A stretch of 63,198 nucleotides of DNA from a virus (lineage: Duplodnaviria; Caudoviricetes). The DNA lies in the IMG/VR virus record IMGVR_UViG_3300037485_001078, positions 1 through 63,198 of that record; one strand, 5' to 3'. Shown here one piece after another: positions 1,908 to 54,419 of the stretch. Made by a program: the position numbers and the translations under genes. The notes under the pieces are model-generated. The model did not search any database and was not told where the DNA came from. It worked only from the letters and a program-made list of their open reading frames with translations. How positions within the stretch are numbered: the first letter of the stretch is position 1; every line of letters begins with the position of its first letter.

Positions 1908-2642
1908 ATGGCTACACTAACCCTAACGCCGAAAGGCACCACCAAGCCCGCAGCACCCGTCGATATTGTCGATGAGGCCAGCGAGCTTGTCACCACGTCT
2001 CCAACAGCTCTAGCGACACCCATCAAGGTCTCCGCTTCAGGAATTGAGGGAGAGATCACCACGGGGGACGTAAACACCCCACGCGTCAACCTCGTCCAGA
2101 AGTCTGGTCAGCTTGTTGATAACTTCAGCCCGGGTTCCTTCCTCCTAGTCAAGGAGGTCGTTCTCGCCAAGCCGAACGAGTCGTTCAAGTTCACACCGCT
2201 TCGCCTGAAGAAGTACTACCAGCTCAAGGTCGAGTTTGGTACGTCTCAGGACATGCCCCCAAAGTTCAACACGATGCAGGAGGTCTTGGACTTCGGCGGG
2301 TCGTTGCAGTACGGGGACGAGAAGTACTGCGTCGAGATGGCAGACATCCTCATGGCCGTCGAGGCTCCTGAAGGTGCCGACGACCAGCTCTTCCCGTACA
2401 GCGATGGAACAAACAACTACGCGCTCGCCCTCTACACCGTGGGTAGCAGCTCGTACACGTCCCTCGCAAAGCGTTTGATCACCGACTCGGTCGGTCTTCT
2501 CCGCAGTGGCCTCTACACGGGCTGCTACGAGATCCACAGCGAGCTGCGCAAGAACGCGGCCAACAGCTGGTACGTGCCAGTCGCCAAGTTCATCGGAAAG
2601 CATCAGGATCCCGACTTCTTCAAGTCGATCGCTGGTCTCTAA
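1908..2642 (+). CDS. hypothetical protein, probable ssDNA-binding protein
   Basis: 244-aa ORF between the nuclease and PolA; function inferred from position only. Confidence 0.55.
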   Translation: MATLTLTPKGTTKPAAPVDIVDEASELVTTSPTALATPIKVSASGIEGEITTGDVNTPRVNLVQKSGQLVDNFSPGSFLLVKEVVLAKPNESFKFTPLRLKKYYQLKVEFGTSQDMPPKFNTMQEVLDFGGSLQYGDEKYCVEMADILMAVEAPEGADDQLFPYSDGTNNYALALYTVGSSSYTSLAKRLITDSVGLLRSGLYTGCYEIHSELRKNAANSWYVPVAKFIGKHQDPDFFKSIAGL

Positions 2643-2649
2643 GTTAATC

Positions 2650-2690
2650 GCGACCCGTCGTTTTAATCGGCGGCGGGTCGCACTACTTTT
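2650..2690 (+). terminator. hairpin/terminator
   Basis: GCGACCCGTCG/CGGCGGGTCGC stem followed by a short T run. Confidence 0.55.
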
Positions 2691-2705
2691 GAAAAGGAAT
2701 TTTAT

Positions 2706-5426
2706 ATGATTGTTGCTTTAGATACTGAAACTTATTACGACGACGAGGTCTCCATCAAGACGCTCGGAACGTGGCACTACCTACGTCACACAAAGGCCGA
2801 CCTGTACCTCCTATCGGTAGCCGCCGACAACGGGCTCAGATGGGTCGGACACCCCAAGGACTTCGACTGGTCGCAGATAACTGGGCCACACGTCACGTGG
2901 CTCTCCCACAACGTTTCGTTCGACTCCATGGTCATCGAGCGGCTGCAGGAGCTAGGACAAGCTCCAGACAGCATAGAGATCGCGGAGTGGGTATGCACAG
3001 CCGACATGGCTGCATACTTGGGACATAACCGGAGCCTGAAGGAAAGTGCCAACAGCCTGCTGGGAGTCGAGATGACGAAGACCGTCCGCGACAACATGAA
3101 GGGAAAGCGCTGGGAGGACATGGACGTGTTCTTTCAGGACGACGTGGTCAAGTACGCTCTCGACGACGCGGTTCATTGCCTCAACCTTTTCCTGCAGCAC
3201 GGCGACAAGTTCGTGGAGCACGAGCGTGAGATCAGCGCCATGACGCGCACGATGTGCTCACGCGGAGTTCCACTAGACGTGCCCGCTCTCGACAAGGCGA
3301 TCACCAAGCTGCAGACGGCTATCTGGCAGGCCAAGCTCGACATTCCATGGGCCGACCGCGAAGCGATTCTATCGCCGCTAGCGGTACGTGCGGAATGCGA
3401 GAAGGTTGGAATCTGGGCACCCGCGTCATTCGCCAAGGGCGACGACGAGGCGGAGCGTTGGGAGGACGAGTTCTCTCACCTCCACCCATGGATCAAAGCT
3501 GTGCGAAATTACCGACGCGGAAACAAGCACCTGAGCACACTTGAGACCATGAGAAGCCGCTGCAGGGAGGATGGGACTATGCCCTATGGATTGAAGTTCT
3601 TCGGAGCTCACACCGGGAGGGACAGCGGCGACGTCGGCTGGAACGCGCAGAACCTCCCGAAGGGCGAGGTCTTCGACGTCGATGTCCGAAGTATGATCAA
3701 AGCTCCTGAAGGATACACCTTCGCGATCGTTGACCTCAGTCAGATCGAGCCGCGTGTACTTCACTGGCTAGCGGGCGACACCAAGATGCTCGAACACATC
3801 CGCCAGTGCCCCGACTTCTACGAGGCGCAGGCGCGTGCCATGGGCCTCTGGAGCGGCGACGAGCCACTTCGTACTGATCCCAAAAAACGCCACCTGATTA
3901 AGGGCTTGAATCTTGGCTTGGGCTACGGCATGGGCGCGAAGAAATTTTCATCGGTCGCGAACATTCCGAGCGACGAGGCCGAGCGCCTCACACGCCTGTA
4001 CCGCAGCAAGAACCCACTCGTAACTAAGCTGTGGAAAGACTTGGAGGGGATATTGCGTGAGACTGCATCAGGCACAACGCCGCACGCGGAGTTCGGGATG
4101 CCTTCTGGCCGCAAGATGACATACCGAAACGTGTCGGTGGATCACGGCGGACTAACCGCGCAGATACCGCGTAAAGGCAAGTTCATGCGTCTCGGATTTT
4201 GGGGTGGTGTTATTACCGAAAATTGTTTGTCTGGAAACACTGAGGTATTAACTCAACGGGGGTGGATCAAGATTTCCGTGCTGAACTTAAATGATAAGGT
4301 ATGGGATGGAGTAGAATGGGTTACTCATCTCGGAATAAAAGAGATGGGAATCAAAAAAACCATAGATTGCCATGGGATATGTGCCACTGAAGATCATTTA
4401 TTCCTGACGGATTTGGGGTGGGTTGAAGCTAAAATAGCTTGTCAAACAGCTTGCACCGATGTGAGCTATGGTTCATATGAAACACAATACCATGGATCTA
4501 ACGGGAAAAAATATAGGGAACATGTCAGTAATTTCTTTAGCTGGGAGCAACGGGAAAAACAGCCTTTGGAACATAGTCTGCAAATGTGGGAACACGGAGG
4601 TGAAGATGGGAAAGGAGCTGACCCGAAGAGGGGGGCGAAAGTTCTGCGGGCGATCTTGCCGACTCAACAAGGAGAAGGTTCGGAACATCACCCACGGGAT
4701 GAGTCAGCATCCCGCGTTCGCCGTATGGAGCTCGATGAAATCGAGGTGTCATCGGAAAACTCATCCAGCGTACAAGAATTACGGGGGGAGGGGTATTTCG
4801 GTATGCCAAGAATGGTTAGATTCGTTCGAGAACTTCTGGGCCGATATGGGGAATGGCTATCAGACGGGACTCGACTTAGATCGAATAGACAACGAATCTG
4901 GGTACTCGAAAACAAATTGCCGTTGGGCAACACGCTCCAGAAATACCCGGAACAAGAGGAACGGGTGGAAGAACCGATCGGACATACCCGAGAATTTCTT
5001 AGAGATCGCCCAAGCGCACGGGATCAAGAGGACTACAGTGTACTACAGATTGAACAGGGGGCTTCCTTGGGACACGATTCTAAGCACGCCAGTAGATCCA
5101 AAGAACCAGTTTACGACATCCTAAACTGCGGCCCTAGAAATAGGTTTGTAGTTAGGGGGGGAGAAGGGATGCCCGCGATTATCGCACATAACTGCGTACA
5201 GGCAACGGCCCGCGACGTGTTTATGGACTGCTGCTTGCGCATCGAGGCGCAGGGATACCCAGTACTTATGAGGATCCACGACGAGGTCGTGTGTCAGGTG
5301 CCAGCTGGCGACGAGGGCAAGTGCTGCTTGGACGCCATCGTCAAGATCATGTCAACGGCTCCAGACTGGGCCGAGGGGCTTCCGCTTTCCGCCGAGGGAT
5401 CACTTTCCGACGTATACAAGAAATAA
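2706..5426 (+). CDS. polA: family A DNA polymerase with 3'-5' exonuclease, interrupted by an intein
   Basis: Exo motifs DTE, HNVSFD, YALDD; motif A DLSQIE; motif B KGLNLGLGYG; motif C IHDE. Confidence 0.93.
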   Translation: MIVALDTETYYDDEVSIKTLGTWHYLRHTKADLYLLSVAADNGLRWVGHPKDFDWSQITGPHVTWLSHNVSFDSMVIERLQELGQAPDSIEIAEWVCTADMAAYLGHNRSLKESANSLLGVEMTKTVRDNMKGKRWEDMDVFFQDDVVKYALDDAVHCLNLFLQHGDKFVEHEREISAMTRTMCSRGVPLDVPALDKAITKLQTAIWQAKLDIPWADREAILSPLAVRAECEKVGIWAPASFAKGDDEAERWEDEFSHLHPWIKAVRNYRRGNKHLSTLETMRSRCREDGTMPYGLKFFGAHTGRDSGDVGWNAQNLPKGEVFDVDVRSMIKAPEGYTFAIVDLSQIEPRVLHWLAGDTKMLEHIRQCPDFYEAQARAMGLWSGDEPLRTDPKKRHLIKGLNLGLGYGMGAKKFSSVANIPSDEAERLTRLYRSKNPLVTKLWKDLEGILRETASGTTPHAEFGMPSGRKMTYRNVSVDHGGLTAQIPRKGKFMRLGFWGGVITENCLSGNTEVLTQRGWIKISVLNLNDKVWDGVEWVTHLGIKEMGIKKTIDCHGICATEDHLFLTDLGWVEAKIACQTACTDVSYGSYETQYHGSNGKKYREHVSNFFSWEQREKQPLEHSLQMWEHGGEDGKGADPKRGAKVLRAILPTQQGEGSEHHPRDESASRVRRMELDEIEVSSENSSSVQELRGEGYFGMPRMVRFVRELLGRYGEWLSDGTRLRSNRQRIWVLENKLPLGNTLQKYPEQEERVEEPIGHTREFLRDRPSARDQEDYSVLQIEQGASLGHDSKHASRSKEPVYDILNCGPRNRFVVRGGEGMPAIIAHNCVQATARDVFMDCCLRIEAQGYPVLMRIHDEVVCQVPAGDEGKCCLDAIVKIMSTAPDWAEGLPLSAEGSLSDVYKK
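4224..5192 (+). mobile_element. intein (323 aa) in PolA
   Basis: Starts CLSGNTEVLTQRGW, block B ATEDH, block F VYDILN, ends HN followed by Cys; removal restores GVITEN-CVQATARD. Confidence 0.92.
4468..5124 (+). CDS. HNH-type homing endonuclease overprinted in the +1 frame within the intein (start may be 4477 or 4492)
   Basis: DLTGK..G, CKCGN, THGMS, W.SMKSRC, YKNYGGRGISVC.EW, LDRIDN..GY...NCRWAT...N..N motifs. Confidence 0.88.
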   Translation: MVHMKHNTMDLTGKNIGNMSVISLAGSNGKNSLWNIVCKCGNTEVKMGKELTRRGGRKFCGRSCRLNKEKVRNITHGMSQHPAFAVWSSMKSRCHRKTHPAYKNYGGRGISVCQEWLDSFENFWADMGNGYQTGLDLDRIDNESGYSKTNCRWATRSRNTRNKRNGWKNRSDIPENFLEIAQAHGIKRTTVYYRLNRGLPWDTILSTPVDPKNQFTTS

Positions 5427-5428
5427 TT

Positions 5429-5722
5429 ATGAGCTGCGCTAAGAAAAAAGTTCTCTGTTTCCTGATCTCCGAGGATTTAGAGGTTTTCATCGGAGAGAAC
5501 ACGTGCTTGAATCCCCAACCCGCTTGCCCGCGAGAGAAAGGCGAGGGGTACGAAAAATGCAAATCAATCTGCCAACAAACCGCCCACGCCGAGGTCAACG
5601 CAATCGCGCTGGCTGGAGCAAAGGCCAAGGGTGCCAAGGCATTCGTGCTTCACAAGCGCGTGTGCTGCGACTGCCAAGATGCGCTTGAGCAGGCTGGAGT
5701 AAAGTCAGTAACGCTAGTCTAA
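5429..5722 (+). CDS. cytidine/dCMP deaminase-like zinc protein
   Basis: HAEVNAI and C..C (VCCDC) motifs; ATG 2 nt after the polA stop. Confidence 0.75.
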   Translation: MSCAKKKVLCFLISEDLEVFIGENTCLNPQPACPREKGEGYEKCKSICQQTAHAEVNAIALAGAKAKGAKAFVLHKRVCCDCQDALEQAGVKSVTLV

Positions 5723-5746
5723 ACACACACACACACACACACACAC
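5723..5746 (+). repeat. (AC)12 microsatellite
   Basis: Perfect dinucleotide run ending 8 nt before ATG 5755. Confidence 0.95.
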
Positions 5747-5754
5747 CGACCCAT

Positions 5755-7938
5755 ATGAAGTTATTCTCACTAAAAAACCTAGTCACACACGAGATCCTCG
5801 AAACCGACGACCTGTACTTAGCAGGCACCGAGAACCCTCGCAACCTGCTAGACACGCCCCTCAAGACCAAGGAGGAGTACTCGAACTGGTGCGCCGACGC
5901 CACGACCAACGGCGTATTCCTCTCAGCTGTGGAGGGCGTCAATCCTCACGATCGAGTGAAGGACAGCAACCCAGCGAAACGGCTACACGGCATCATCGGC
6001 GACTACGACGCGGAGACCGCCATGGACAACATCGACAAGCTCTCGAAGAGCACCGCGTACATGCCAGCGTATATCGTCAGCACGTTTACGCCGGGCAAGG
6101 TGCGCCTGATCTGGATCTTCGAGGCTCCAGTCAACGTGCTCAACGAAGCAATCACCGAGAAGTTCCTACAGGAGCTGAACAAGGCCGTCCGTATCTCGTC
6201 GGCGTTGCCCGGATTCGACAAGAAGAGCTTCGAGCTCAACCAGTACTTCGAGATGGGCACGCAGTGGAACGCGGTGACGATTGAGGACAAGGCTCCAGTG
6301 CTTCCCTCCACGCTGCTTGAGACCTGCCTGCTGCAGGGCGCTGAGAAGGCGAAGATACAGCCCACAGACGCGCCCCTGATACCGATCGAGATCGTCGCGG
6401 CGGAGGTAGAGATCCAGTTCCCCAACCGCGTTCAGGGCACGTTCGAGATCGGAAAGAAGCAGCCCCTGTTCTGGATCAACGACGGCATCGATCGCCTCGC
6501 TTCCGTAGTCTCGGAGAACGGGATGGTGATCTATTCAGACCGAGAGGGAACCAACTTCAAGACGTGGCGTCAGATCTTGGGCGGAAAGTTCGTCGAGCGC
6601 TTCGAGCAGGAGCAGACTGGAAAGGCGGCTCAGATGTTCTGGTTCGATGGCAAGACGTACTGGACGAAGCACCACGCCGAGAACTTCGTGTACCTCGCCA
6701 AGGAGGACGCAAAGCTGCACCTGCGCGGAGCTGGGGTCAACGATCGCCCGCAGCGCGGACAGCAGGTAAGCGACGTGGAGCGTGTGCTCATTCACGTGCA
6801 GACTCAGCGCCGAGTATCCGCAGCCGTCCCCATCCTGTTCTCCCCAGACGAGACCGTGGACTTCGGTGGAGAGCGATACCTGAACATCAGCAACAAGCGC
6901 GTCACGCAACCAGCCGCCAGCGCGTCGGTGGATCAGTTTCCATGGATTCACGACTTCATTACGAACGCGTTTGACGGCGAATTTGAGGGCGTGCCAGCGT
7001 ACGAGTACTTCCTTGGATGGTTTAGGAGATTCTACGAGTCGGCGCTGAACTGTAGGCCGCTGCCGGGTCAAGTCATCATCATCGCTGGAGACGCGCACAC
7101 GGGCAAATCCTTCATCAACAAGTGGCTCATCGGCGAGGCGCTTGGTGGATCAGTTGACGCGGAGCCGCTCCTCATGAAGGAGACCAGCTTCAACAAGCAG
7201 GGCGCTGAGTGTGCTCTATGGCGCTGCGACGACGCCGCGACCGACGGCAACTGGAAGACCCGCGAGATGTTCACGAAGAGCCTCAAGCAGATGGCCGCAA
7301 ACCCTAGCCAGCTGTACCAGCCAAAGTTCCGAGACAGCGTCGAGCTCCCCTTCTTGGGGCGCGTCGTAGTTACCTGCAACGTCGATCCTGAGTCGCTGAG
7401 AATCCTCCCGACTCTTGACGGCACGATCCGCGACAAGATCATGCTATTCAAGCTGAAGGAGGGGTACCGCCCGCACTTCCATGGAACCAACTACGACAAC
7501 GAGCAGCGCATGTGCCGCGAGCTTCCCTTCTTCCTGCGTTGGCTACTCGATCGCGAGATGCCAGAGACCATCATCGATCCAGTTTTCAAACGTTTCGGAG
7601 TGAAGTCATTTCATCACGCGGAGCTAGTCACCGTGGCACAAACTACGCAGAGCGAGTACGTGTTCTCGGAGATCCTTGACGCGTGGCTCAACGCGAAGCG
7701 CGAGGAGAAGGTCAAGCAGGTCGAGGTGACGGCCACCGAGCTCAGGACGCAACTCGCGGCGGTGCTGGGTCAGGGCGCTGATCTCAGCAACTTCAAGACC
7801 GTCTCGATCGGAAAGCAGCTATCGAAGTTGATGCAGCAAGACATGGTACGAGAGCTCAAGGGCAAGCGGATGCTGGACGGCAAGGTCAAGTACCAGTTCG
7901 TCTTTACGGACGCGCCACCAGTCGAGCAGCCGTTCTAA
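5755..7938 (+). CDS. primase-helicase (N-terminal primase-like domain, C-terminal P-loop NTPase)
   Basis: GIIGDYD motif; Walker A GDAHTGKS; Walker B-like WRCDD; VTCN. Confidence 0.75.
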   Translation: MKLFSLKNLVTHEILETDDLYLAGTENPRNLLDTPLKTKEEYSNWCADATTNGVFLSAVEGVNPHDRVKDSNPAKRLHGIIGDYDAETAMDNIDKLSKSTAYMPAYIVSTFTPGKVRLIWIFEAPVNVLNEAITEKFLQELNKAVRISSALPGFDKKSFELNQYFEMGTQWNAVTIEDKAPVLPSTLLETCLLQGAEKAKIQPTDAPLIPIEIVAAEVEIQFPNRVQGTFEIGKKQPLFWINDGIDRLASVVSENGMVIYSDREGTNFKTWRQILGGKFVERFEQEQTGKAAQMFWFDGKTYWTKHHAENFVYLAKEDAKLHLRGAGVNDRPQRGQQVSDVERVLIHVQTQRRVSAAVPILFSPDETVDFGGERYLNISNKRVTQPAASASVDQFPWIHDFITNAFDGEFEGVPAYEYFLGWFRRFYESALNCRPLPGQVIIIAGDAHTGKSFINKWLIGEALGGSVDAEPLLMKETSFNKQGAECALWRCDDAATDGNWKTREMFTKSLKQMAANPSQLYQPKFRDSVELPFLGRVVVTCNVDPESLRILPTLDGTIRDKIMLFKLKEGYRPHFHGTNYDNEQRMCRELPFFLRWLLDREMPETIIDPVFKRFGVKSFHHAELVTVAQTTQSEYVFSEILDAWLNAKREEKVKQVEVTATELRTQLAAVLGQGADLSNFKTVSIGKQLSKLMQQDMVRELKGKRMLDGKVKYQFVFTDAPPVEQPF

Positions 7939-45785: not shown

Positions 45786-48700
45786 ATGTCCTATCTAAGC
45801 AAACTTGAAGAGGAGTATTCTCAACAAACTCAGAAGGAGGGGGTAGCTGCACAACCAACGGAGTCCGCAGAGCCGCCTAAGCCAGAAGGCTACCTTGCAA
45901 AGTTAGAGAGCGAGTACAAGTCAGCTCCTACAGAAAAGCCAAAATCATACCTAGAGGGGCTAGACCAAAAGTACGACGTAAATCCAGACTCCTTGCGCGG
46001 TAGGAAAGAGCGCGGAGAGCCGCTGTCTGAGGATCAGGAGCGAGTTATCTTCGATGCAGACCGAGCTCGCAGCGCAGGAGAACAAGCGGCTGCAACTGGC
46101 AAGGGAGTCTTCACCAGCCTCAGTGAATTGGTTCCACAAGCCTTCGAGGGAACAAAGAAAATTATTGGTGCTAGCAAAGACTTGACCAAACAAATTGGAC
46201 TCAAGTACCTAGACGTCAATCCGATTGTTCCCGAGATTGCAGTCGATTACATAGCTGGAAATACCGCAGAAGATAGGCAAACTAATTTGGAGAAAGCAGC
46301 CAAGAAAGAGCAAGAAGTTGTTCGGTCGGCGGCGTCTGGCGCGGTTCAGGCTGGTGAAGAAGTAATTAACGAAGCTGCACGCGGAGCTTTCTTTGGCACA
46401 CCGCTTACAGATCTCATTCAGGAGTACCCCGCTGGCAAGCTAGCGTTTGAAGCCATGAAGGCTGGTGGCCCCGTAGCATTCGCCACTGAAGCACTGGGTC
46501 AAAAGATTTTTGGAGCTCCGCTGGTTGACGTGCAGCCGATCACGAAGGACGAGTCGTTCCAGAGGTCGAGGAATCGTGAGAGCATGCGCCAGCAGGAGCA
46601 GCAGGAGTACAAAGATCTCCCAGAAAGAACTACCGCCGCGCTGGTAAAGCTGGCCGAAAGTTCCGCTGGATCCGCGCTCGGCAAATCTTTGGGAGTCCCC
46701 TCCAACGAGCAGTTCCAAAAGGACTTGGTTCAGGAGCTAAAAGACAGAGCTATCGTTCCAGACAAAGACATCGCCATGATCGGAAATATGTTGAGCCCGC
46801 TGGATCCTACCTTCGTCTTGGCTGGCCCGCTTGCAAGGGCGTCATCGAAAGCATTTGACCTAGCATCTGGGGCTGGTCTCCGAGCTCTCACCAAGCCGAC
46901 TATTGCTGGAATGAATCCCCTTGAAGCAACGGGTCGTGTAATACGATTCGGCGGAGAGGGCACACAAAAGGCCGCAAGAAAGTTCAGCGACTTCCTTACT
47001 GGTTCAGAAGACAGCTTTATCGGAAAACTAGCCGATCCAATTGTTGCGGTCACCCGTCGCCCCGGCATGATTGTCGAGGGCGCAGGACGCGCTCTCAGGG
47101 ACATCGGACGTCAGATCGACGACGTGGGAGTCCGATCTCGTACGGGAATCATCGAGCGGGCTGGACAGGACGCACGTTCTGGAGACTTTATGCGGACAGT
47201 TTTTGGCCCCGGCACCGAGAAGGCTCAGGCCAAAGCTCTCAAAGCAGCTGAGAAAGTGGCTGGTGAGGGTGGAGAGGCTAGCCTACCCGCATCCGCATTC
47301 GTTTCTAAGCGCCAAAAAGCCGCTAGGACTGCGGACTGGGTCTTTAGGCAAGCCGAAGCCATAGCGCGTTACGGAACAAGCGGAGCGGCCATTGGAACCG
47401 CCCTTGGACTTCCCGATATTGAGAACGCGGAGCAGCTCGGACAGATGGCCACTACTGGAGCCATGGTCGGTGCTATTGGTGGCATGAGGCTTGGAGAGAA
47501 GGGCGCAAAGCTGATTGATCCAAGGGTTTCCCTAAAAGGAAAGATCGACGCTATCCTAGCCGACGATCCTGTATCTAGGCGTGCGGACGAGGACGCCGAC
47601 ATCGAGCGTTTCCGAAATACTGCAGCTCCTGATATCATCAGCAAGGCCGACGAATTCGGAAATATTAATTCCGTTCTGCAATCTTTTGACGGACATCTTC
47701 AGAATCTTGCCATCCAACGCGACCAAGCAATTGCTCGTGGAGAGGCCGACGTCGCTGCTGGAATGGAACTTGAAATCAAGAAGACAGCTGCGAGCAAGGA
47801 CGCAGTTGCTAAGATGACTCCAGACGCGATGAAGGAGTACCAGCGCCGAGTTGACCTCACGCTAGCAGATTCGTTAGACCTAGCAAAAACCACAGGTGAA
47901 GCTGTGGGTCTCAACAACGTCGAGATCAAGCTGCTCTCTCCAGTAGAAATGTTGGGTCACCTACGTGACAAGTGGGGATCGACTTTGACAAACGCGGAGT
48001 ATGTTCTTCAGTCACTAGCTGGCAACAACGACCTTAGCGACGCGGATCAGCAGAAACTCAATCAGGCAACGGAGACCGTCAACCAGTTCAACGCCATGTA
48101 TCAGACAGCCATGGCGCAGCGCGGATACGCTATGTCTGAGAACACGTATTCGGATAGCCCAATGCATTTGCGCCCTGCAAATCTCAAGACCCCGTCGGTC
48201 GTCGTCAATTCCGAACTAGTCAAGAGCCAGCTTGGAAACAATTTGTACGCAACTTTGAATCATGAGCTTCTAGCCCACGCGCTAAGGAATTTCAAAGAGG
48301 TCAAAGCGATGATGGGGCCGCTTGAAGAGTACTTGTTTGGAAAGAAGGTTCAGAACGCTGATGGAAGCATCACCGAGATATCAAAAGGAATTTACGACGA
48401 CGCGGCGATCGATCGCATGGGCGACTACTACGCGGAGCTTTTGGGAGGAGACAAGTGGAAGGCTGGATTCTCTACCGAGCAGCAGTACAGGAGCTACATC
48501 AAGGAGGAGATTCTCGCGGAGGCCGCTGGTTTGTCATCCAACACGGCTAATCTACGTGCTGACTTAGACTCACCGGGTCAAGCGTTCGTCGATTGGGCCG
48601 CTACCTCCAACAAGAATACTTTCATCGGAAAGATCCGCGACGCGCTCGGCCTCAAGGGTGTGCTGCTAGACGACGCAGGAAGGATCTCGGACATTCTTGG

Positions 48701-51700
48701 AGAGACGATATCGCCAGAGGTTCTCGCACTCACTCGCCAGTACCAGCGCCAGCTCAGGGACTACAACGGATCCTTGTCGCAAGTCACTTCTGCCACTGGG
48801 CCAGAGGTTACGATCTCGGCTGTTGAGCTGCTATCGAGCAAGATTCTGCAGAACAAGTATCGCGGCCTCGACATCTGGCAAAAGGAGCAGGTGCTCACAA
48901 TCAAGGACGACGAAGGAAACGTGGTCAACGAGATCGTGGTTCCTCAGTCCGCATCTCTCAACGCGCTTGTGGGTCAGTACCGCCTCGAAGACGGCATGCT
49001 TGTGGACGAGAACGGAAACAAGATGCAGATCGCTCCTGAGATCGCCGCAGCAAATCTTCCGAACAACACCAACATTTCTGTTGACCAAAGGATTGCTAGA
49101 AACCCAGACGGCTCTCCAAAGATCCTTTCAAATAGGGAGATTCAGGCGCGTGCTAGGAAGCGCGGAGAGGTGTTGAAAAACGCTATCGAGGGCGCTATGG
49201 AGGATGGATCGACAAACCGAGTCCGACCAGTAGGAGAGAACGAGTACGCTGGCATTCTGAGCCCGACTCAGCTACAGGCGATCTTGGCGCTTCCTAATGA
49301 CATAGTGGCTCCTGAGTTGAAGCGCAAGATTGCAGCCTTCAACGAGACGGCCCTACGTAAGGATGGGACGCGAATGATCGTCGAGTACCAAGCAGCGATG
49401 AAGGGCGGAAAATACAAGGCGCTTGCACCTAAGATCCGCGACGTCGTGCCGTTCGGATTCAGAATTACAAAAGATGGTAACTTCCTAGCGACTACAATTT
49501 CTGTCAGCAGAATTTTCGACAAGATCAACGATTGGGCAAAGCCGAACAGGAACAGGCTAAACCTCTGGAACGGAGATACCAACGCGCTGTGGGAAGACAT
49601 CCTACACGTTCTTACGAACCATCAAAAGGGCGAGCGCGGAGAGGTTGGACTCGACGTTGATCCTGACATGGCGATGCTCAAGAAGGATCGAATCAACGAC
49701 ATCTTCAATCTCTTCGACAAGGCCACCGAGTCGAAGAACCCCGATCGTTCCGTAAGCAAGACACGCAAGGGACAAGACTCAATCGACCGCGTCATCATGG
49801 GAATGAGGATGGATCGCGTAAACGACTTCCAGATTTCAAACGCTCAGAAGATCCCAGTGGACTACGGCAAGATCAAAGAGAACTACATGCCAAACGTGCC
49901 TGTAGACGTCGTCCAGAATAATGTTGCCGAGGAAGGCCGCTTAGGTTATAAAGAATCTCCAACCATTAAATATCGTGAACCAAAATACGAAACCACCAAC
50001 CCCCCAAGACTGGGATACATCGATCCGCGAACTACAGAGGAAGGTCAGAGAGTCCTCCGAGAGGATCCAACCCTCGCGCGGGCCTTTGCCGCCCTTGAAG
50101 GAGCGTCTGAGGCTGGCGGAGATCAGCGCCCAACTTCAGGGTCTTCGGTAATACCAGCGGAAACAGAAGCTCTTAGAGAGTTCGCAAAAAACTCAGGGAC
50201 TATGGAGTCTCCTGAAGTCGTCCAAAAATTTACTGATGATTGGAACGCAGAAAATAGAACCGCTGGAACTGAACATCAGGTTTTATTGGGAAACGGAGAT
50301 CGAGTAGAAAAGCGTTTCACAGCCACGTACAACGATACGTGGAAAAACTATCTCAACCGAATATTGTTACACAATATCCTGTTCAGGGATTCAGCGATCA
50401 GGCTCGAAGGTTTCCAAGAAGTTCCTGAAATAACGCAGGATCGTAACGGGCAAGAGTGGAGTCCGGGGTTTTACGCCAAGATTTCTCAGCCATACGCTAG
50501 AGGAAAACACGTTGATCTCATAAAGGATCTCAAGCCGTACATGGAATCGTTGGGCTTCGTTTCTAACGGGCCGATGAATTATTACCACCCAGAATACGGA
50601 GTCCACGTCTCGGACATGCACCCCGGCAATGCATACGTGGAAACGGATGCACAAGGGAACAAGCACGTAAATGTGTTTGATCCAAACTTGCACTTGACTG
50701 GCGAGAAAGAAGGCGACGCCAAGGAACGTGCCCGCGTTGAAGCCAAGTTGGCTACTCAAAGACCAGTTGAGGAAGTTGGTTTTAGCTGGCCGCAAGAGGT
50801 TGACGCAGCGATAGGCCGCATGAAGTCGGTGGTGGAAAACCCGCAGAACATGCCGACTGAGGTCAAGCCTGAAGCACCGCTACCAGTCAATCTCTACGAG
50901 GCTGGAACTAGTTTGGAATCGTTTGGCGTTAATTCGTTGAAGGAAATTGCCGAGCACTACGGCTTCCCAGTCCCAGATAAAGCCAAGCGCGGGGAGATCA
51001 TCGATCTCGTTGAAAACAGGTCGTCTGAAGTGCAATTCAAGCCAGCTACTATAAGGCGCGAAGTTGGGAAGAACGAAGATTTCCTCGGAATGTCCGACGA
51101 GAAAGACGCACAAGAAGCTCTTGACGTCAGCAAGCGCCCGAAATTCGGACTAGCACGCGACCTCGAACAAGGTTACCCGGTCGCACTGCGAATCGACATC
51201 CCAGCGTTCAACCGCACTGGGAACTACGTCGTGACGGTTCATGAAAAGGGAACTCCAAGCAAGGTCGGAGAGGTCATCGGGTACGACAACGTCGCTCGTG
51301 TTGACAACCCCACGTTCATGTCTAACGAGACTGGTGCTGAAAAGATTTCTAAGGGAGAGAGCAAGAAGTTCCCGATTGCCACGGTGGCTGGTGAGTTCAA
51401 CCCATCCCGCGAAATCCCCGCAGATATCAACGATTGGACACCAGTCGGATTCGACCCCAAGGAGCACTCGTACTTCTACGACAAGGCGACCGACGAGCTT
51501 GTGCTGGGCGGAGACGAGGCCGTGAGTGTTGGCAACACCGTCTTTGTAAAGAACCCAGTCTACGGCGACAAGGGGATGGCCCGCTTTATGCCTGCAGCGA
51601 AGGGCGACTCTCCGCAGTCCAGCCTGTCCAAGGACGAGCGCGACGCAGCCGTCAAGTTCTTAGAGCGTGGCACGCTTTCCATGGCGGAGGTTCACGACTC

Positions 51701-54419
51701 ACTCGCCAAGCTCGCCAACGGCGACGTGCAGTCCATCACCGAAAAGCTCTCCACGGGCCGACTCTTCGAGCTCGCGCACAAAGCTACTGGCACTCCGATC
51801 CTGAACCGCGTAGATGCCCTCTCAGCCGTCCGTAGGAACATCAACAGCCGCAAGGACGCACTGACTCAGAGCAGCATGGCATCACCGATGGCCGACGACA
51901 TCGTCCGCACTCCTGTCAATCGTCAGGCCGCTCAGGGGTTGGCATTTAAGCCATCAGAAAGGTACACAACCGTCGAGGTGGCTCCCGACCCAGAAGACAA
52001 GAAAGCGGTTGAGGCTTGGAATTCTTTCAACGAGGCAAGCAAAAAGATAGTAACCGAAAAGGTAGCCAACGATATGCTCCCTAAGATTGCGTCTGACATG
52101 GGTCTACCTGAGCCAATAATCACGCACATCATTGGAGGTTTCCTGAAAGAGACCAATCCTAGCGTGCTGGTAGAATTTCCATCAGATATTCCCTACGAAA
52201 AGCAAATGGAGTTCGCCAAGGTGGCTGGTCACTTGCTCAAGCAGCAGGCGGTCATCACATTTGACGAAGCAAACAAGACTGATGATCAAGCGTTCTTTGT
52301 CGGACTCACTCCATCACGTGAACTTTCGTACGAGGAAACGTCTGAGCTGTACAAAAAAATCAACGATCAAATGGAAGAAGCCGCAGGCTTCACGGGTAAG
52401 ACGGATCAGCTTGTCTTCGGTAATTTCAGCGAAATGTCAAACGAAGATTTCTACACTAAATTGAAATCTGTTGTGGACGAAGTGGGAACTGGCGTTGATT
52501 ATGGCATCAACACCGTACAACACGAATTCCGATCGAACTACATCGAGACGGGATCACCAGACACACTCAACGAAACACAATATGGGAAAGGTAACACACA
52601 GGAAGGCGGAACCGGGGGAGACTCTATTCGGGGGGCTCAAGGGCGTTTTGATGCCCTTCAAACCGCTACAAACGAAGCCGTCCGAGGAGCCATCGAATCC
52701 GAACGAGCCAGTGCCGCAGGAGAAACCACAGGAGTAACCGCCACTCCACAGGCATCGGTAATGCCTCAGTCCGCTCTCAACGTCCTGCACGCCGATAGCG
52801 CCGACCTACCAAAGCCTGAGAAGAAGATCACGAATGCTCGTGTCGCGGTAAACATCGCAGACATTGCAGAGAAGTACTGGGGCGGAAAGATCACGAGTGA
52901 GACTATCACTCCTGAGCAGGAGCAGCAGCTTATCGACAACGGAGCCGAGGAGGCTATCGCTGCGCTTACCGCTAGTGGTAGGAACGCAGGTAACTGGTAC
53001 TTTACCGCAATTAAAGCCGCCATTGCGGTAGTTGGGGTTATCCACAAACAGCTCTCTTCATTGGTCGAAGCAAACAAGATTCCTTATTTTGCTAAGGAAT
53101 CAAACCCAGTAGAAGCAGCTCAGTTCATCCTGAGATTGCCACTTGCGATCACATCGCAGAACATGACCGTTCCTTTGAACGCTCGTTTCTCCGAGGAGCA
53201 GTACAATCACTACGTCAAGAATGGCGAGTTCGATCCATCCAAGCAGTATGGTGAGAAGGCGAAGAGCATCAGCGGCAACCTAAAGCTAGCCAATACCATG
53301 ATTAAGAACCATGGCGGAATCCTGCAGCTCCAAGAGTTTGTTAAGCAGGAATTCACCGTCAGGGATCTTGAGAAGGTCGCCAGCAAGATTGCAGGACAGA
53401 AAGTCACTATCTCAGGACGCAAGGACGACATCGTCAATGGAGCCGCTATCTTCGGCCCTAAGATTGGCCAAGGATTCCTGCAAAATCTCATGGGCAAGTT
53501 CGATCCAGTAACGATCGATCTCTGGATGCGTCGGACGTGGGGTAGGTGGACAGGAGATGTCGTAGGTGACGGCGTCACTGGCACACGACTAGCACGCTTA
53601 ATCGATGAATCTCGCAACTCAGGAAGGAAGTTGCCCCCATCGCTGAAAAACCTTCGTACTGTAGACCGCAGCCTTGACGTCAAGAAAAGCGGAGAGCCTA
53701 CAAAGCCAGTACGTACCATATCGGAAAACGTCGAGGAGAGGTTAGAAAACGATCCTCAGTTCAGGAAAGACGTTGAGACACTCGCCAAGGAGTGGAACCG
53801 CGAGTTCCAGAAGTATTATGACTTCATGGGAGCTCCTATCTCTCCAGCTACCGCCCAAGGAATCAGGGATCTCATCGCCAACCAAGCTCCAGAAGCAGAT
53901 ATCACGAAGGCGTACAACAAGTTGATTCGCAGCCAGAGCAAGATCCGCGAGGATCTCGATGAGGCGTACAAGCAGCTTTCTCCAGCTCAGAAACGTACTG
54001 CAGAAGGCAAGAATATCCCCAAGGATACTTGGATCGCCGAGCAGCACGCAAAGAACGGACGCACCGAGGTTCTAACCAACCCCGAAAAGAACAAGCTGAA
54101 GCCCCAGTGGGCCAACGCAGCGAAGTCAATCGTAGCCGAGCTGAATCCTATCGACATCCCCACCGATCAAGACCGCGTAGTCATTACGCGCATCGTGAAT
54201 GGCATCCGCAAGAAACTTGAGGACAAAGGGTACACGGTCACCAACGCCGATATCCAAGCCATTTTGTGGTATCCAGAAAAAGATCTCTGGGCTAAGTTGA
54301 GGGGAGAGGAAGAATCAAACCTGAACACATCTTATGACGACGAATTCATCAAAATCGCAGAGCAACGCGGACTTGGAGCAGAAGCCAAAGCAATTGCAAA
54401 ACCAATCCGAGGCTATTGA
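45786..54419 (+). CDS. large polyvalent internal virion protein (2877 aa) with kinase-like and HhH-glycosylase-like domains
   Basis: GTEH.V...YLNRILLHN.LF...SQPY...SDMHPGN...FDP; WY...AITS...GPKI...NL...VTID.W...QAILW. Confidence 0.75.
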   Translation: MSYLSKLEEEYSQQTQKEGVAAQPTESAEPPKPEGYLAKLESEYKSAPTEKPKSYLEGLDQKYDVNPDSLRGRKERGEPLSEDQERVIFDADRARSAGEQAAATGKGVFTSLSELVPQAFEGTKKIIGASKDLTKQIGLKYLDVNPIVPEIAVDYIAGNTAEDRQTNLEKAAKKEQEVVRSAASGAVQAGEEVINEAARGAFFGTPLTDLIQEYPAGKLAFEAMKAGGPVAFATEALGQKIFGAPLVDVQPITKDESFQRSRNRESMRQQEQQEYKDLPERTTAALVKLAESSAGSALGKSLGVPSNEQFQKDLVQELKDRAIVPDKDIAMIGNMLSPLDPTFVLAGPLARASSKAFDLASGAGLRALTKPTIAGMNPLEATGRVIRFGGEGTQKAARKFSDFLTGSEDSFIGKLADPIVAVTRRPGMIVEGAGRALRDIGRQIDDVGVRSRTGIIERAGQDARSGDFMRTVFGPGTEKAQAKALKAAEKVAGEGGEASLPASAFVSKRQKAARTADWVFRQAEAIARYGTSGAAIGTALGLPDIENAEQLGQMATTGAMVGAIGGMRLGEKGAKLIDPRVSLKGKIDAILADDPVSRRADEDADIERFRNTAAPDIISKADEFGNINSVLQSFDGHLQNLAIQRDQAIARGEADVAAGMELEIKKTAASKDAVAKMTPDAMKEYQRRVDLTLADSLDLAKTTGEAVGLNNVEIKLLSPVEMLGHLRDKWGSTLTNAEYVLQSLAGNNDLSDADQQKLNQATETVNQFNAMYQTAMAQRGYAMSENTYSDSPMHLRPANLKTPSVVVNSELVKSQLGNNLYATLNHELLAHALRNFKEVKAMMGPLEEYLFGKKVQNADGSITEISKGIYDDAAIDRMGDYYAELLGGDKWKAGFSTEQQYRSYIKEEILAEAAGLSSNTANLRADLDSPGQAFVDWAATSNKNTFIGKIRDALGLKGVLLDDAGRISDILGETISPEVLALTRQYQRQLRDYNGSLSQVTSATGPEVTISAVELLSSKILQNKYRGLDIWQKEQVLTIKDDEGNVVNEIVVPQSASLNALVGQYRLEDGMLVDENGNKMQIAPEIAAANLPNNTNISVDQRIARNPDGSPKILSNREIQARARKRGEVLKNAIEGAMEDGSTNRVRPVGENEYAGILSPTQLQAILALPNDIVAPELKRKIAAFNETALRKDGTRMIVEYQAAMKGGKYKALAPKIRDVVPFGFRITKDGNFLATTISVSRIFDKINDWAKPNRNRLNLWNGDTNALWEDILHVLTNHQKGERGEVGLDVDPDMAMLKKDRINDIFNLFDKATESKNPDRSVSKTRKGQDSIDRVIMGMRMDRVNDFQISNAQKIPVDYGKIKENYMPNVPVDVVQNNVAEEGRLGYKESPTIKYREPKYETTNPPRLGYIDPRTTEEGQRVLREDPTLARAFAALEGASEAGGDQRPTSGSSVIPAETEALREFAKNSGTMESPEVVQKFTDDWNAENRTAGTEHQVLLGNGDRVEKRFTATYNDTWKNYLNRILLHNILFRDSAIRLEGFQEVPEITQDRNGQEWSPGFYAKISQPYARGKHVDLIKDLKPYMESLGFVSNGPMNYYHPEYGVHVSDMHPGNAYVETDAQGNKHVNVFDPNLHLTGEKEGDAKERARVEAKLATQRPVEEVGFSWPQEVDAAIGRMKSVVENPQNMPTEVKPEAPLPVNLYEAGTSLESFGVNSLKEIAEHYGFPVPDKAKRGEIIDLVENRSSEVQFKPATIRREVGKNEDFLGMSDEKDAQEALDVSKRPKFGLARDLEQGYPVALRIDIPAFNRTGNYVVTVHEKGTPSKVGEVIGYDNVARVDNPTFMSNETGAEKISKGESKKFPIATVAGEFNPSREIPADINDWTPVGFDPKEHSYFYDKATDELVLGGDEAVSVGNTVFVKNPVYGDKGMARFMPAAKGDSPQSSLSKDERDAAVKFLERGTLSMAEVHDSLAKLANGDVQSITEKLSTGRLFELAHKATGTPILNRVDALSAVRRNINSRKDALTQSSMASPMADDIVRTPVNRQAAQGLAFKPSERYTTVEVAPDPEDKKAVEAWNSFNEASKKIVTEKVANDMLPKIASDMGLPEPIITHIIGGFLKETNPSVLVEFPSDIPYEKQMEFAKVAGHLLKQQAVITFDEANKTDDQAFFVGLTPSRELSYEETSELYKKINDQMEEAAGFTGKTDQLVFGNFSEMSNEDFYTKLKSVVDEVGTGVDYGINTVQHEFRSNYIETGSPDTLNETQYGKGNTQEGGTGGDSIRGAQGRFDALQTATNEAVRGAIESERASAAGETTGVTATPQASVMPQSALNVLHADSADLPKPEKKITNARVAVNIADIAEKYWGGKITSETITPEQEQQLIDNGAEEAIAALTASGRNAGNWYFTAIKAAIAVVGVIHKQLSSLVEANKIPYFAKESNPVEAAQFILRLPLAITSQNMTVPLNARFSEEQYNHYVKNGEFDPSKQYGEKAKSISGNLKLANTMIKNHGGILQLQEFVKQEFTVRDLEKVASKIAGQKVTISGRKDDIVNGAAIFGPKIGQGFLQNLMGKFDPVTIDLWMRRTWGRWTGDVVGDGVTGTRLARLIDESRNSGRKLPPSLKNLRTVDRSLDVKKSGEPTKPVRTISENVEERLENDPQFRKDVETLAKEWNREFQKYYDFMGAPISPATAQGIRDLIANQAPEADITKAYNKLIRSQSKIREDLDEAYKQLSPAQKRTAEGKNIPKDTWIAEQHAKNGRTEVLTNPEKNKLKPQWANAAKSIVAELNPIDIPTDQDRVVITRIVNGIRKKLEDKGYTVTNADIQAILWYPEKDLWAKLRGEEESNLNTSYDDEFIKIAEQRGLGAEAKAIAKPIRGY

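Follow-up and report, generated by a model that had tools for sequence, protein, structure and literature searches.

The window analysed here is a complete virus record of 63,198 bp (IMG/VR record IMGVR_UViG_3300037485_001078), the ends of which are direct terminal repeats. All of its long open reading frames (ORFs) lie on the plus strand, and just one family A DNA polymerase gene is present. This encodes PolA as a single ORF of 906 aa (2706–5426), whose frame is called frame 0 below. Polymerase models from Pfam and PHROG match residues 2–478 and 826–906 of PolA, leaving the intervening stretch uncovered. This is flanked by an N-extein (2706–4223, plus strand; Pfam DNA_pol_A, E = 1.4e-24; phrog_17, E = 2.2e-79) that ends in ...GGVITEN, and by a C-extein (5193–5426, plus strand) whose first residue, as aligned with intein-less relatives, is the +1 Cys (codon TGC). 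Between the exteins lies an intein, the middle of which is overlapped by an ORF in the +1 frame related to HNH endonucleases. We are confident in reading this locus as a mini-intein in PolA, the linker of which has been overprinted in the +1 frame by a separately made, HNH-like homing endonuclease gene.

Starting at its 5′ end, the intein (4224–5192, plus strand) begins with Cys at 4224–4226 and continues in the polymerase frame for 323 codons to the terminal His-Asn at 5187–5192, after which the next residue is Cys (5193–5195). An earlier reading of this DNA, called here the original prediction, had given these ends and this length correctly. The N-terminal splicing (Hint) part (4224–4439, plus strand) comprises block A, with Cys1, and block B (T55..H58, GW), assigned from an alignment of 17 members of the intein family (A1). 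The C-terminal splicing part (5109–5192, plus strand) comprises block F (VYD..NCGPRNRF) and block G (..HN), and shares the final 16 nt of the nuclease ORF. In A1 the first residue is C1 in 17/17 members, and T55, H58, W66, V296, D298 and N323 are also invariant; the window intein ends in ...AHN. When the A1 profile was compared with the PDB, 13 of the 14 matches were solved inteins, the best being a split intein of Nanoarchaeum (E = 1.8e-6), with RecA mini-inteins and a DnaX mini-intein among the others. The AlphaFold2 model of the intein has a predicted local distance difference test score (pLDDT) of 89–96 at residues 1–70 and 86–93 at residues 290–323, and falls to <50 at residues 102–192 and 219–288. 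All the top Foldseek matches of this model are mini-inteins, with a probability of 1.00 (7cfv, E = 9.3e-5). None of the Pfam Hint models scored above threshold against the intein, and a blastn search with it against GenBank phages gave no match. On the alignments and the model, 4224–5192 is a class-1 intein with a Hint fold, and is predicted to splice.

The nuclease ORF runs in the +1 frame of the same strand. In its longest form (4468–5124) it has 218 aa, with in-frame ATG codons at 4468, 4477 and 4492. It is matched by PHROG families labelled HNH endonuclease (phrog_374, E = 5.6e-53; phrog_3377, E = 4.4e-49). Alignment with relatives places the conserved start at ATG 4477, so that the dual-coded stretch is 4477–5124 (plus strand; 215 aa and a stop codon). 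The original prediction had described a complete endonuclease ORF from 4468 to 5124 with a AACACAATACCATG start context. The ORF is real, with the likely start at 4477 rather than 4468, and the quoted context is that of ATG 4492. In frame 0 no nuclease model from Pfam, NCBIfam or PHROG matched the insert, and Pfam gave no match at all. The sole NCBIfam match was to intein_Nterm and below threshold (E = 0.0034), while that to phrog_93 is limited to residues 23–70, which belong to the splicing domain. Profile searches of both frames therefore bear out the view that the frame-0 middle has no recognizable nuclease, and that the nuclease is in the +1 frame. The peptide read in frame 0 across the overlap (intein residues 85–295), termed here the shadow peptide, contains 33% E+R+G and 25% hydrophobic residues, compared with 20–21% and 32–35%, respectively, in the Hint parts and extein. 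Its earlier description as an E/R/G-rich shadow was thus apt.

Given the +1 codons, a frame-0 stop requires a +1 codon with a final T just before one that starts with AA, AG or GA. In the window none of the 68 codons at risk is preceded by T, compared with 38 of 150 other codons (independence P ~2e-9). Moreover, not one of 2000 shuffles of synonymous codons left frame 0 open. From these two results it follows that frame 0 is held open by selection, far beyond chance. The third frame of the overlap contains 17 stops.

Relatives of the nuclease are found in the same position. A tblastn search placed homologous nucleases, of ~42% identity, within the DNA polymerase genes of APSE phages, four Caulobacter phages and Shewanella phage SFCi1; the Caulobacter phage GB2A is among those with the nested layout. 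Of 25 phage and IMG/VR loci, the window included, 20 are nested, with the nuclease wholly within an ORF of 634–1111 aa and always in the +1 frame; these 20 have their intein ends in common. In a scan of metagenomes 26 of 35 loci were nested, again always in the +1 frame, at least one of them apparently duplicating the contig of an IMG/VR locus. None of the phage, IMG/VR or metagenome loci has a nuclease in frame with the intein. The layout had been thought rare, which does not hold within this family: most of the nearest relatives of the nuclease show it, and in APSE-1 (P45/P46) it is annotated in GenBank. Across the overlap frame 0 has no stop in any of the 20 nested loci, while the third frame has 7–25; the five non-nested relatives have 6–17 stops in the frame corresponding to frame 0.

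The record is a metagenome assembly, and assembly indels (insertions or deletions) could in principle have shifted a nuclease that was originally in frame, or frame 0 could be open by luck. One sequencing run contains an identical contig of 62.8 kb, which may be the source of the record. Independent contigs come from two runs of another study (X2 and X3), spanning 3900–5335 and 3900–5431 at ~92% identity with 124–128 differences; this relative was not returned by the metagenome scan. Their indels are confined to 4058–4081, outside the intein. Indels that bring nuclease and intein into one frame, which would have contradicted the original prediction, are thus absent, and the out-of-frame layout is not an assembly artefact because the independent contigs show no indels within the intein. 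The +1 relation is, furthermore, kept in 45 other loci, none with an in-frame nuclease, and the shuffles speak against luck. An origin by artefact or chance is so improbable as to be negligible.

The two frames differ in how they evolve, as judged from the 20 nested loci, to which the figures that follow refer. Nucleotide differences at codon positions 1, 2 and 3 are 0.43, 0.35 and 0.68 in the N-terminal Hint part read in frame 0, so that the wobble lies at position 3 of that frame, and 0.42, 0.38 and 0.62 in the overlap when this is read in the +1 frame. Read in the +1 frame, frame 0 and the unused frame, the overlap has amino acid identities of 0.468, 0.249 and 0.253, respectively. In the closest pair (L006 and L009) the ratio of non-synonymous to synonymous substitution rates (dN/dS) takes values of 0.10 and 1.67 for the +1 frame and frame 0 of the overlap, respectively, and of 0.12 for the N-terminal Hint part. 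Over 190 pairs, the +1 frame has proportions of non-synonymous and synonymous differences (pN/pS) of 0.39/0.76, and frame 0 has proportions of 0.49/0.41. A conserved patch in frame 0, RELLGRYG, is the shadow of the invariant nuclease sequence FENFWADMG. Within the overlap, purifying selection at the level of protein acts on the +1 frame only. With the avoidance of T before codons at risk, this upholds the earlier claim that about 650 nt of an essential gene are dual coding.

The module is not confined to one site or to one gene. Within the conserved PolA motif there are two registers of insertion, three codons apart. Five loci (L001, L002, L005, L006 and L009, of the APSE-1 and Caulobacter type) use ...GGK./C-EN..QA, where the slash marks the point of insertion, while the window and most others use ...EN/C.QA. 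The intein with its +1 nuclease also occurs in genes for SNF2-family helicases, between SNF2-rel_dom and Helicase_C, in L020 (1716–4208) and L021 (1662–4205); L130 and L126–L128 are also listed with the cases in SNF2 helicases or other host genes. In some metagenome loci the dual-coded module adjoins other C-exteins. From these arrangements the dual-coded intein and nuclease have changed host gene as a unit. One locus, L017 (884–3923), is a split-intein form with three ORFs in three different frames. The N-extein and N-intein end at 3001, the nuclease follows at 2971–3621, and the C-intein (MKVYD..) with the C-extein continues to 3923. Free-standing relatives of the nuclease exist as well. The original prediction had proposed that a free-standing HNH gene invaded a mini-intein; this is supported, and fits the existence of those relatives. 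As a separate observation, the polymerase frame of L007 is broken upstream of the intein by a distinct ORF of 244 aa (1198–1929) with a DLPYG motif, presumably as in DNA methyltransferases; this may be another insertion in the polymerase gene.

The intein is absent from close relatives of its host gene. A total of 78 loci were fetched with the N-extein, and the 13 closest (55–94% amino acid identity) were examined. None of these 13 has the intein; their sequence at the site is ...EN/[LV]VQ..AR. At the junction, which was compared with gaps given a 3-nt indel, relatives with ...TEN/LVQATARD correspond to ...TEN/intein/CVQATARD in the window. The +1 Cys of the window therefore sits where the 13 intein-less relatives have Leu or Val. 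By this comparison a mobile unit must carry the codon of the +1 Cys along with it, and the spliced polymerase would have Cys at this position. The G+C content is 0.479 in the intein and 0.579 in the exteins. The patchy distribution, low G+C content and switching of exteins would fit ongoing mobility.

Within the nuclease family the window protein is 37–48% identical to 18 relatives. The alignment of these 19 members (A2) has 35 invariant columns, which include a CxC...CG..C set and H73, C91, C110 and C148; we read these as two probable zinc sites. An acidic residue (D or E) directly precedes position 136 in 18/19 members, and N147 and N159 are invariant. These positions align with I-HmuI, a solved HNH enzyme, in which we take the acidic residue and an Asn to be metal ligands and a further Asn to be structural. 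Y143 is also invariant. The AlphaFold2 model of the nuclease has a mean pLDDT of 78; a phmmer search of PDB sequences with the nuclease gave no meaningful match.

The start of the nuclease gene lies in a setting that is partly conserved. In the window there is a stop in the +1 frame one codon 5′ of ATG 4468, and in all 20 nested loci the +1 frame is closed 1–25 codons upstream of the aligned start (1–14 in 18 of them). The aligned start codon is ATG or GTG in 13/20 loci, and in the other seven one of these two lies within a few codons of the aligned position. A Shine–Dalgarno (SD)-like core is found at –17 to –5 in 15/20 loci, compared with a background of 0.14, and is made of the E/D-G-W codons of block B. 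No such core precedes the nuclease start of the window, which lies ~17 codons farther from block B than in the loci that bear one. At the gene starts of this phage an SD-like core occurs in ~5 of 33 (counted by eye), and the leaders are mostly rich in A, C and T and poor in G, which points to a host making little use of SD pairing. The least structured 50-nt window of RNA in polA (4473–4522, plus strand) spans the nuclease start codons; centred on 4498, it has a minimum free energy of –0.6 kcal/mol, compared with a polA mean of –11.0 (SD 3.8). In terms of low RNA structure, the start window reaches the 90th percentile or more in 7/20 loci, where two would be expected. A sigma-70 scan of 2400–5800 on the plus strand found no promoter-like site, a result that carries little weight.

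These features bear on how the nuclease would be made. It might arise by programmed ribosomal frameshifting from the polymerase frame, and so be fused to the N-extein and the N-terminal half of the intein. Both frames do share one mRNA, and the window is without an SD-like core. Against this, the +1 frame is closed shortly upstream of the start in every nested locus, the start codon is conserved at its aligned position with an SD-like core in most loci, and no common slippery motif was noticed in the 30 nt upstream of the start, although no dedicated search was made. We consider frameshifting very improbable; the start features, although indirect, favour internal initiation.

Several observations weigh against a mini-intein with a nested homing endonuclease. 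Nuclease models of Pfam and NCBIfam match the +1 protein in none of the 19 family members (HNH models of Pfam 0/19, of NCBIfam none). The resemblance of the nuclease profile to I-HmuI is weak (E = 0.11), and in this alignment the family-invariant R136 stands at the position of the general-base His. The top fold match among 48,161 chains is PacI, and is modest (Z = 6.3, root-mean-square deviation 2.5, 76 residues, within model residues 73–163), short of what the program rates as a clear match; Foldseek returned nothing at E <= 0.001 for the nuclease model, PacI having E = 0.2. The missing SD-like core of the window belongs here too. With respect to mobility, extein identity dips weakly beside the junction (0.73–0.87, compared with ~0.88–0.93), and on this weak dip we claim no clear co-conversion tract. 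The distances of the Hint and nuclease parts are weakly correlated (Mantel r = 0.30, 44/5000 permutations).

The +1 protein might accordingly not be a homing nuclease, or no longer be one. It could instead bind DNA for regulation, for exclusion of competing phages or for retention of the intein, with the intein persisting mainly by descent. The invariant Arg in place of the general-base His, the lack of Pfam HNH matches and of a clear co-conversion tract, and the matches of several of the 19 members to helix-turn-helix models at their C-terminus would all suit such a protein. However, the metal-ligand positions are kept, with the acidic residue in 18/19 members and N159 in all, and the patchy distribution, low G+C content and extein switching are those expected of an element still mobile. 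PacI, the top fold match, is an HNH-fold restriction enzyme that, according to a review (PMC4081073), is active with a Tyr rather than a His as general base, and Y143 is invariant here. We judge a non-nuclease role unlikely. The original term ‘HNH-type’ holds in so far as HNH families of PHROG match, and less well in that an invariant Arg replaces the general-base His and no Pfam HNH model matches; ‘HNH-like’ is a reasonable label for the +1 protein, whose catalysis is putative.

For the mini-intein with a nested homing endonuclease, the following course of events can be proposed. A class-1 mini-intein occupies the conserved PolA motif ...EN/C.QA.ARD, and the linker between its blocks B and F has been overprinted in the +1 frame by a probably once free-standing HNH-like homing endonuclease gene. 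Ribosomes in the polymerase frame would traverse ~215 codons for a hydrophilic, probably disordered peptide that has no meaning of its own and in which nothing but the absence of stops is maintained, and this shadow peptide would be discarded together with the intein upon splicing. The nuclease would be made apart, by internal initiation on the shared mRNA at ATG 4477 (or 4492), in the least structured stretch of polA. It would presumably cut polymerase alleles lacking the intein, whereupon the whole module would be copied in with its Cys codon. We infer, then, separate translation of the nuclease, splicing of the intein, nuclease activity and homing of the module.

A more far-reaching version of this proposal is doubtful. 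The E/D-G-W-K codons of block B may double as the ribosome-binding site of the nuclease, and the final codons of the nuclease as block F, in most members of the family. The partners would then be locked together, with ribosomes in the polymerase frame setting the level of the nuclease and the +1 relation frozen, and the family might be a living intermediate in the acquisition of a nuclease. If so, loss or displacement of either partner would harm the other, which would explain why the +1 relation has stayed frozen through deep divergence, in two registers and several host genes, and in a split form.

Elsewhere in the window, a run of ~12 CA dinucleotides (5725–5750) stands directly 5′ of an ORF of 727 aa starting at 5755, and a very long ORF (45786–54419; 2877 aa) lies in the late region.

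Among the closest known systems is that of phage APSE-1 (GenBank NC_000935), in which the DNA polymerase P45 is annotated with a nested ‘HNH endonuclease’, P46. This is a true homologue of the window arrangement, with equal intein ends, the same nuclease family (42% amino acid identity) and the +1 relation. It differs in its register of insertion, three codons upstream (GGK./CEN..QA), and in having an SD-like core within block B; the annotated P46 begins at a later Met.

Nucleases out of frame within inteins have been published before (2015, 2025 and 2026), and the layout is known and common in phages. The earliest of these three describes, in the part of the paper available, an intein of the Brucellaphage large terminase with an HNH gene ‘located out of frame’ (PMC4422536, 2015). 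This case shares with the window an HNH-annotated gene that lies, in a different frame, across the middle of an essential phage gene with an intein; it appeared ten years ahead of the preprints. The Brucellaphage host gene is, in contrast, a terminase, and the available portion of that paper contains no test of selection or of frame openness. Among inteins of actinobacteriophages, the accessible text of a preprint reports antisense LAGLIDADG or Vsr-like nucleases and an endonuclease VII-like nuclease in frame 3 (bioRxiv 10.1101/2025.01.02.630785). There too the splicing domain and extein share one frame, a nuclease related to free-standing phage nucleases lies between the blocks in another, and the origin proposed is that a free-standing nuclease gene invaded an intein. 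The window differs in that its nuclease is HNH-like rather than endonuclease VII-like, the host gene is a family A polymerase and the hosts are not actinophages; the name APSE does not occur in the accessible text of that preprint, supplements aside. A cyanobacterial dnaX intein carries an out-of-frame LAGLIDADG endonuclease, according to the available part of a further preprint (bioRxiv 10.64898/2026.09.14.751524), which cites Gorbalenya 1998 for an out-of-frame intein nuclease. It resembles the window in the overprinted homing endonuclease within the intein of a replication gene, the purifying selection and the secondary invasion of a mini-intein, and differs in the LAGLIDADG class, the cellular host and the frame relation.

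Fractured genes, in which split inteins flank a free-standing endonuclease gene, with GIY-YIG and Vsr-like nucleases, form a related class (Dassa et al. 2009, PMC2677866, as far as its available text extends). Again the nuclease gene lies between intein halves, with its 3′ end overlapping the C-terminal intein part, and the split-intein locus L017 has exactly this form. Unlike these, the window has an unbroken host frame (2706–5426) and a contiguous intein. The ShiLan insertion is a related case that is not an intein, going by the available part of its description (PMC11855218). A literature search, with supplements and the 1999 APSE-1 paper outside it, found no printed description of the present PolA/HNH-like family.

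The layout itself is no longer surprising, and the value of the family lies in a large and deeply diverged comparative set. Gene callers and intein surveys that consider only the in-frame product mislabel such inteins as lacking a nuclease, and overlook the nested gene or assign it a wrong start, as with P46 of APSE-1. The nuclease family has an Arg for the HNH His and falls outside all Pfam models, so its cleavage behaviour would be informative. This family provides a clear-cut natural case of overprinting within an essential gene, where holding a second frame open is almost cost-free, demanding just the avoidance of a third-position T before codons starting with AA, AG or GA. Taken together, its free-standing, contiguous and split forms lay out stages of the proposed route along which mini-inteins would acquire homing endonucleases or come apart as split inteins.

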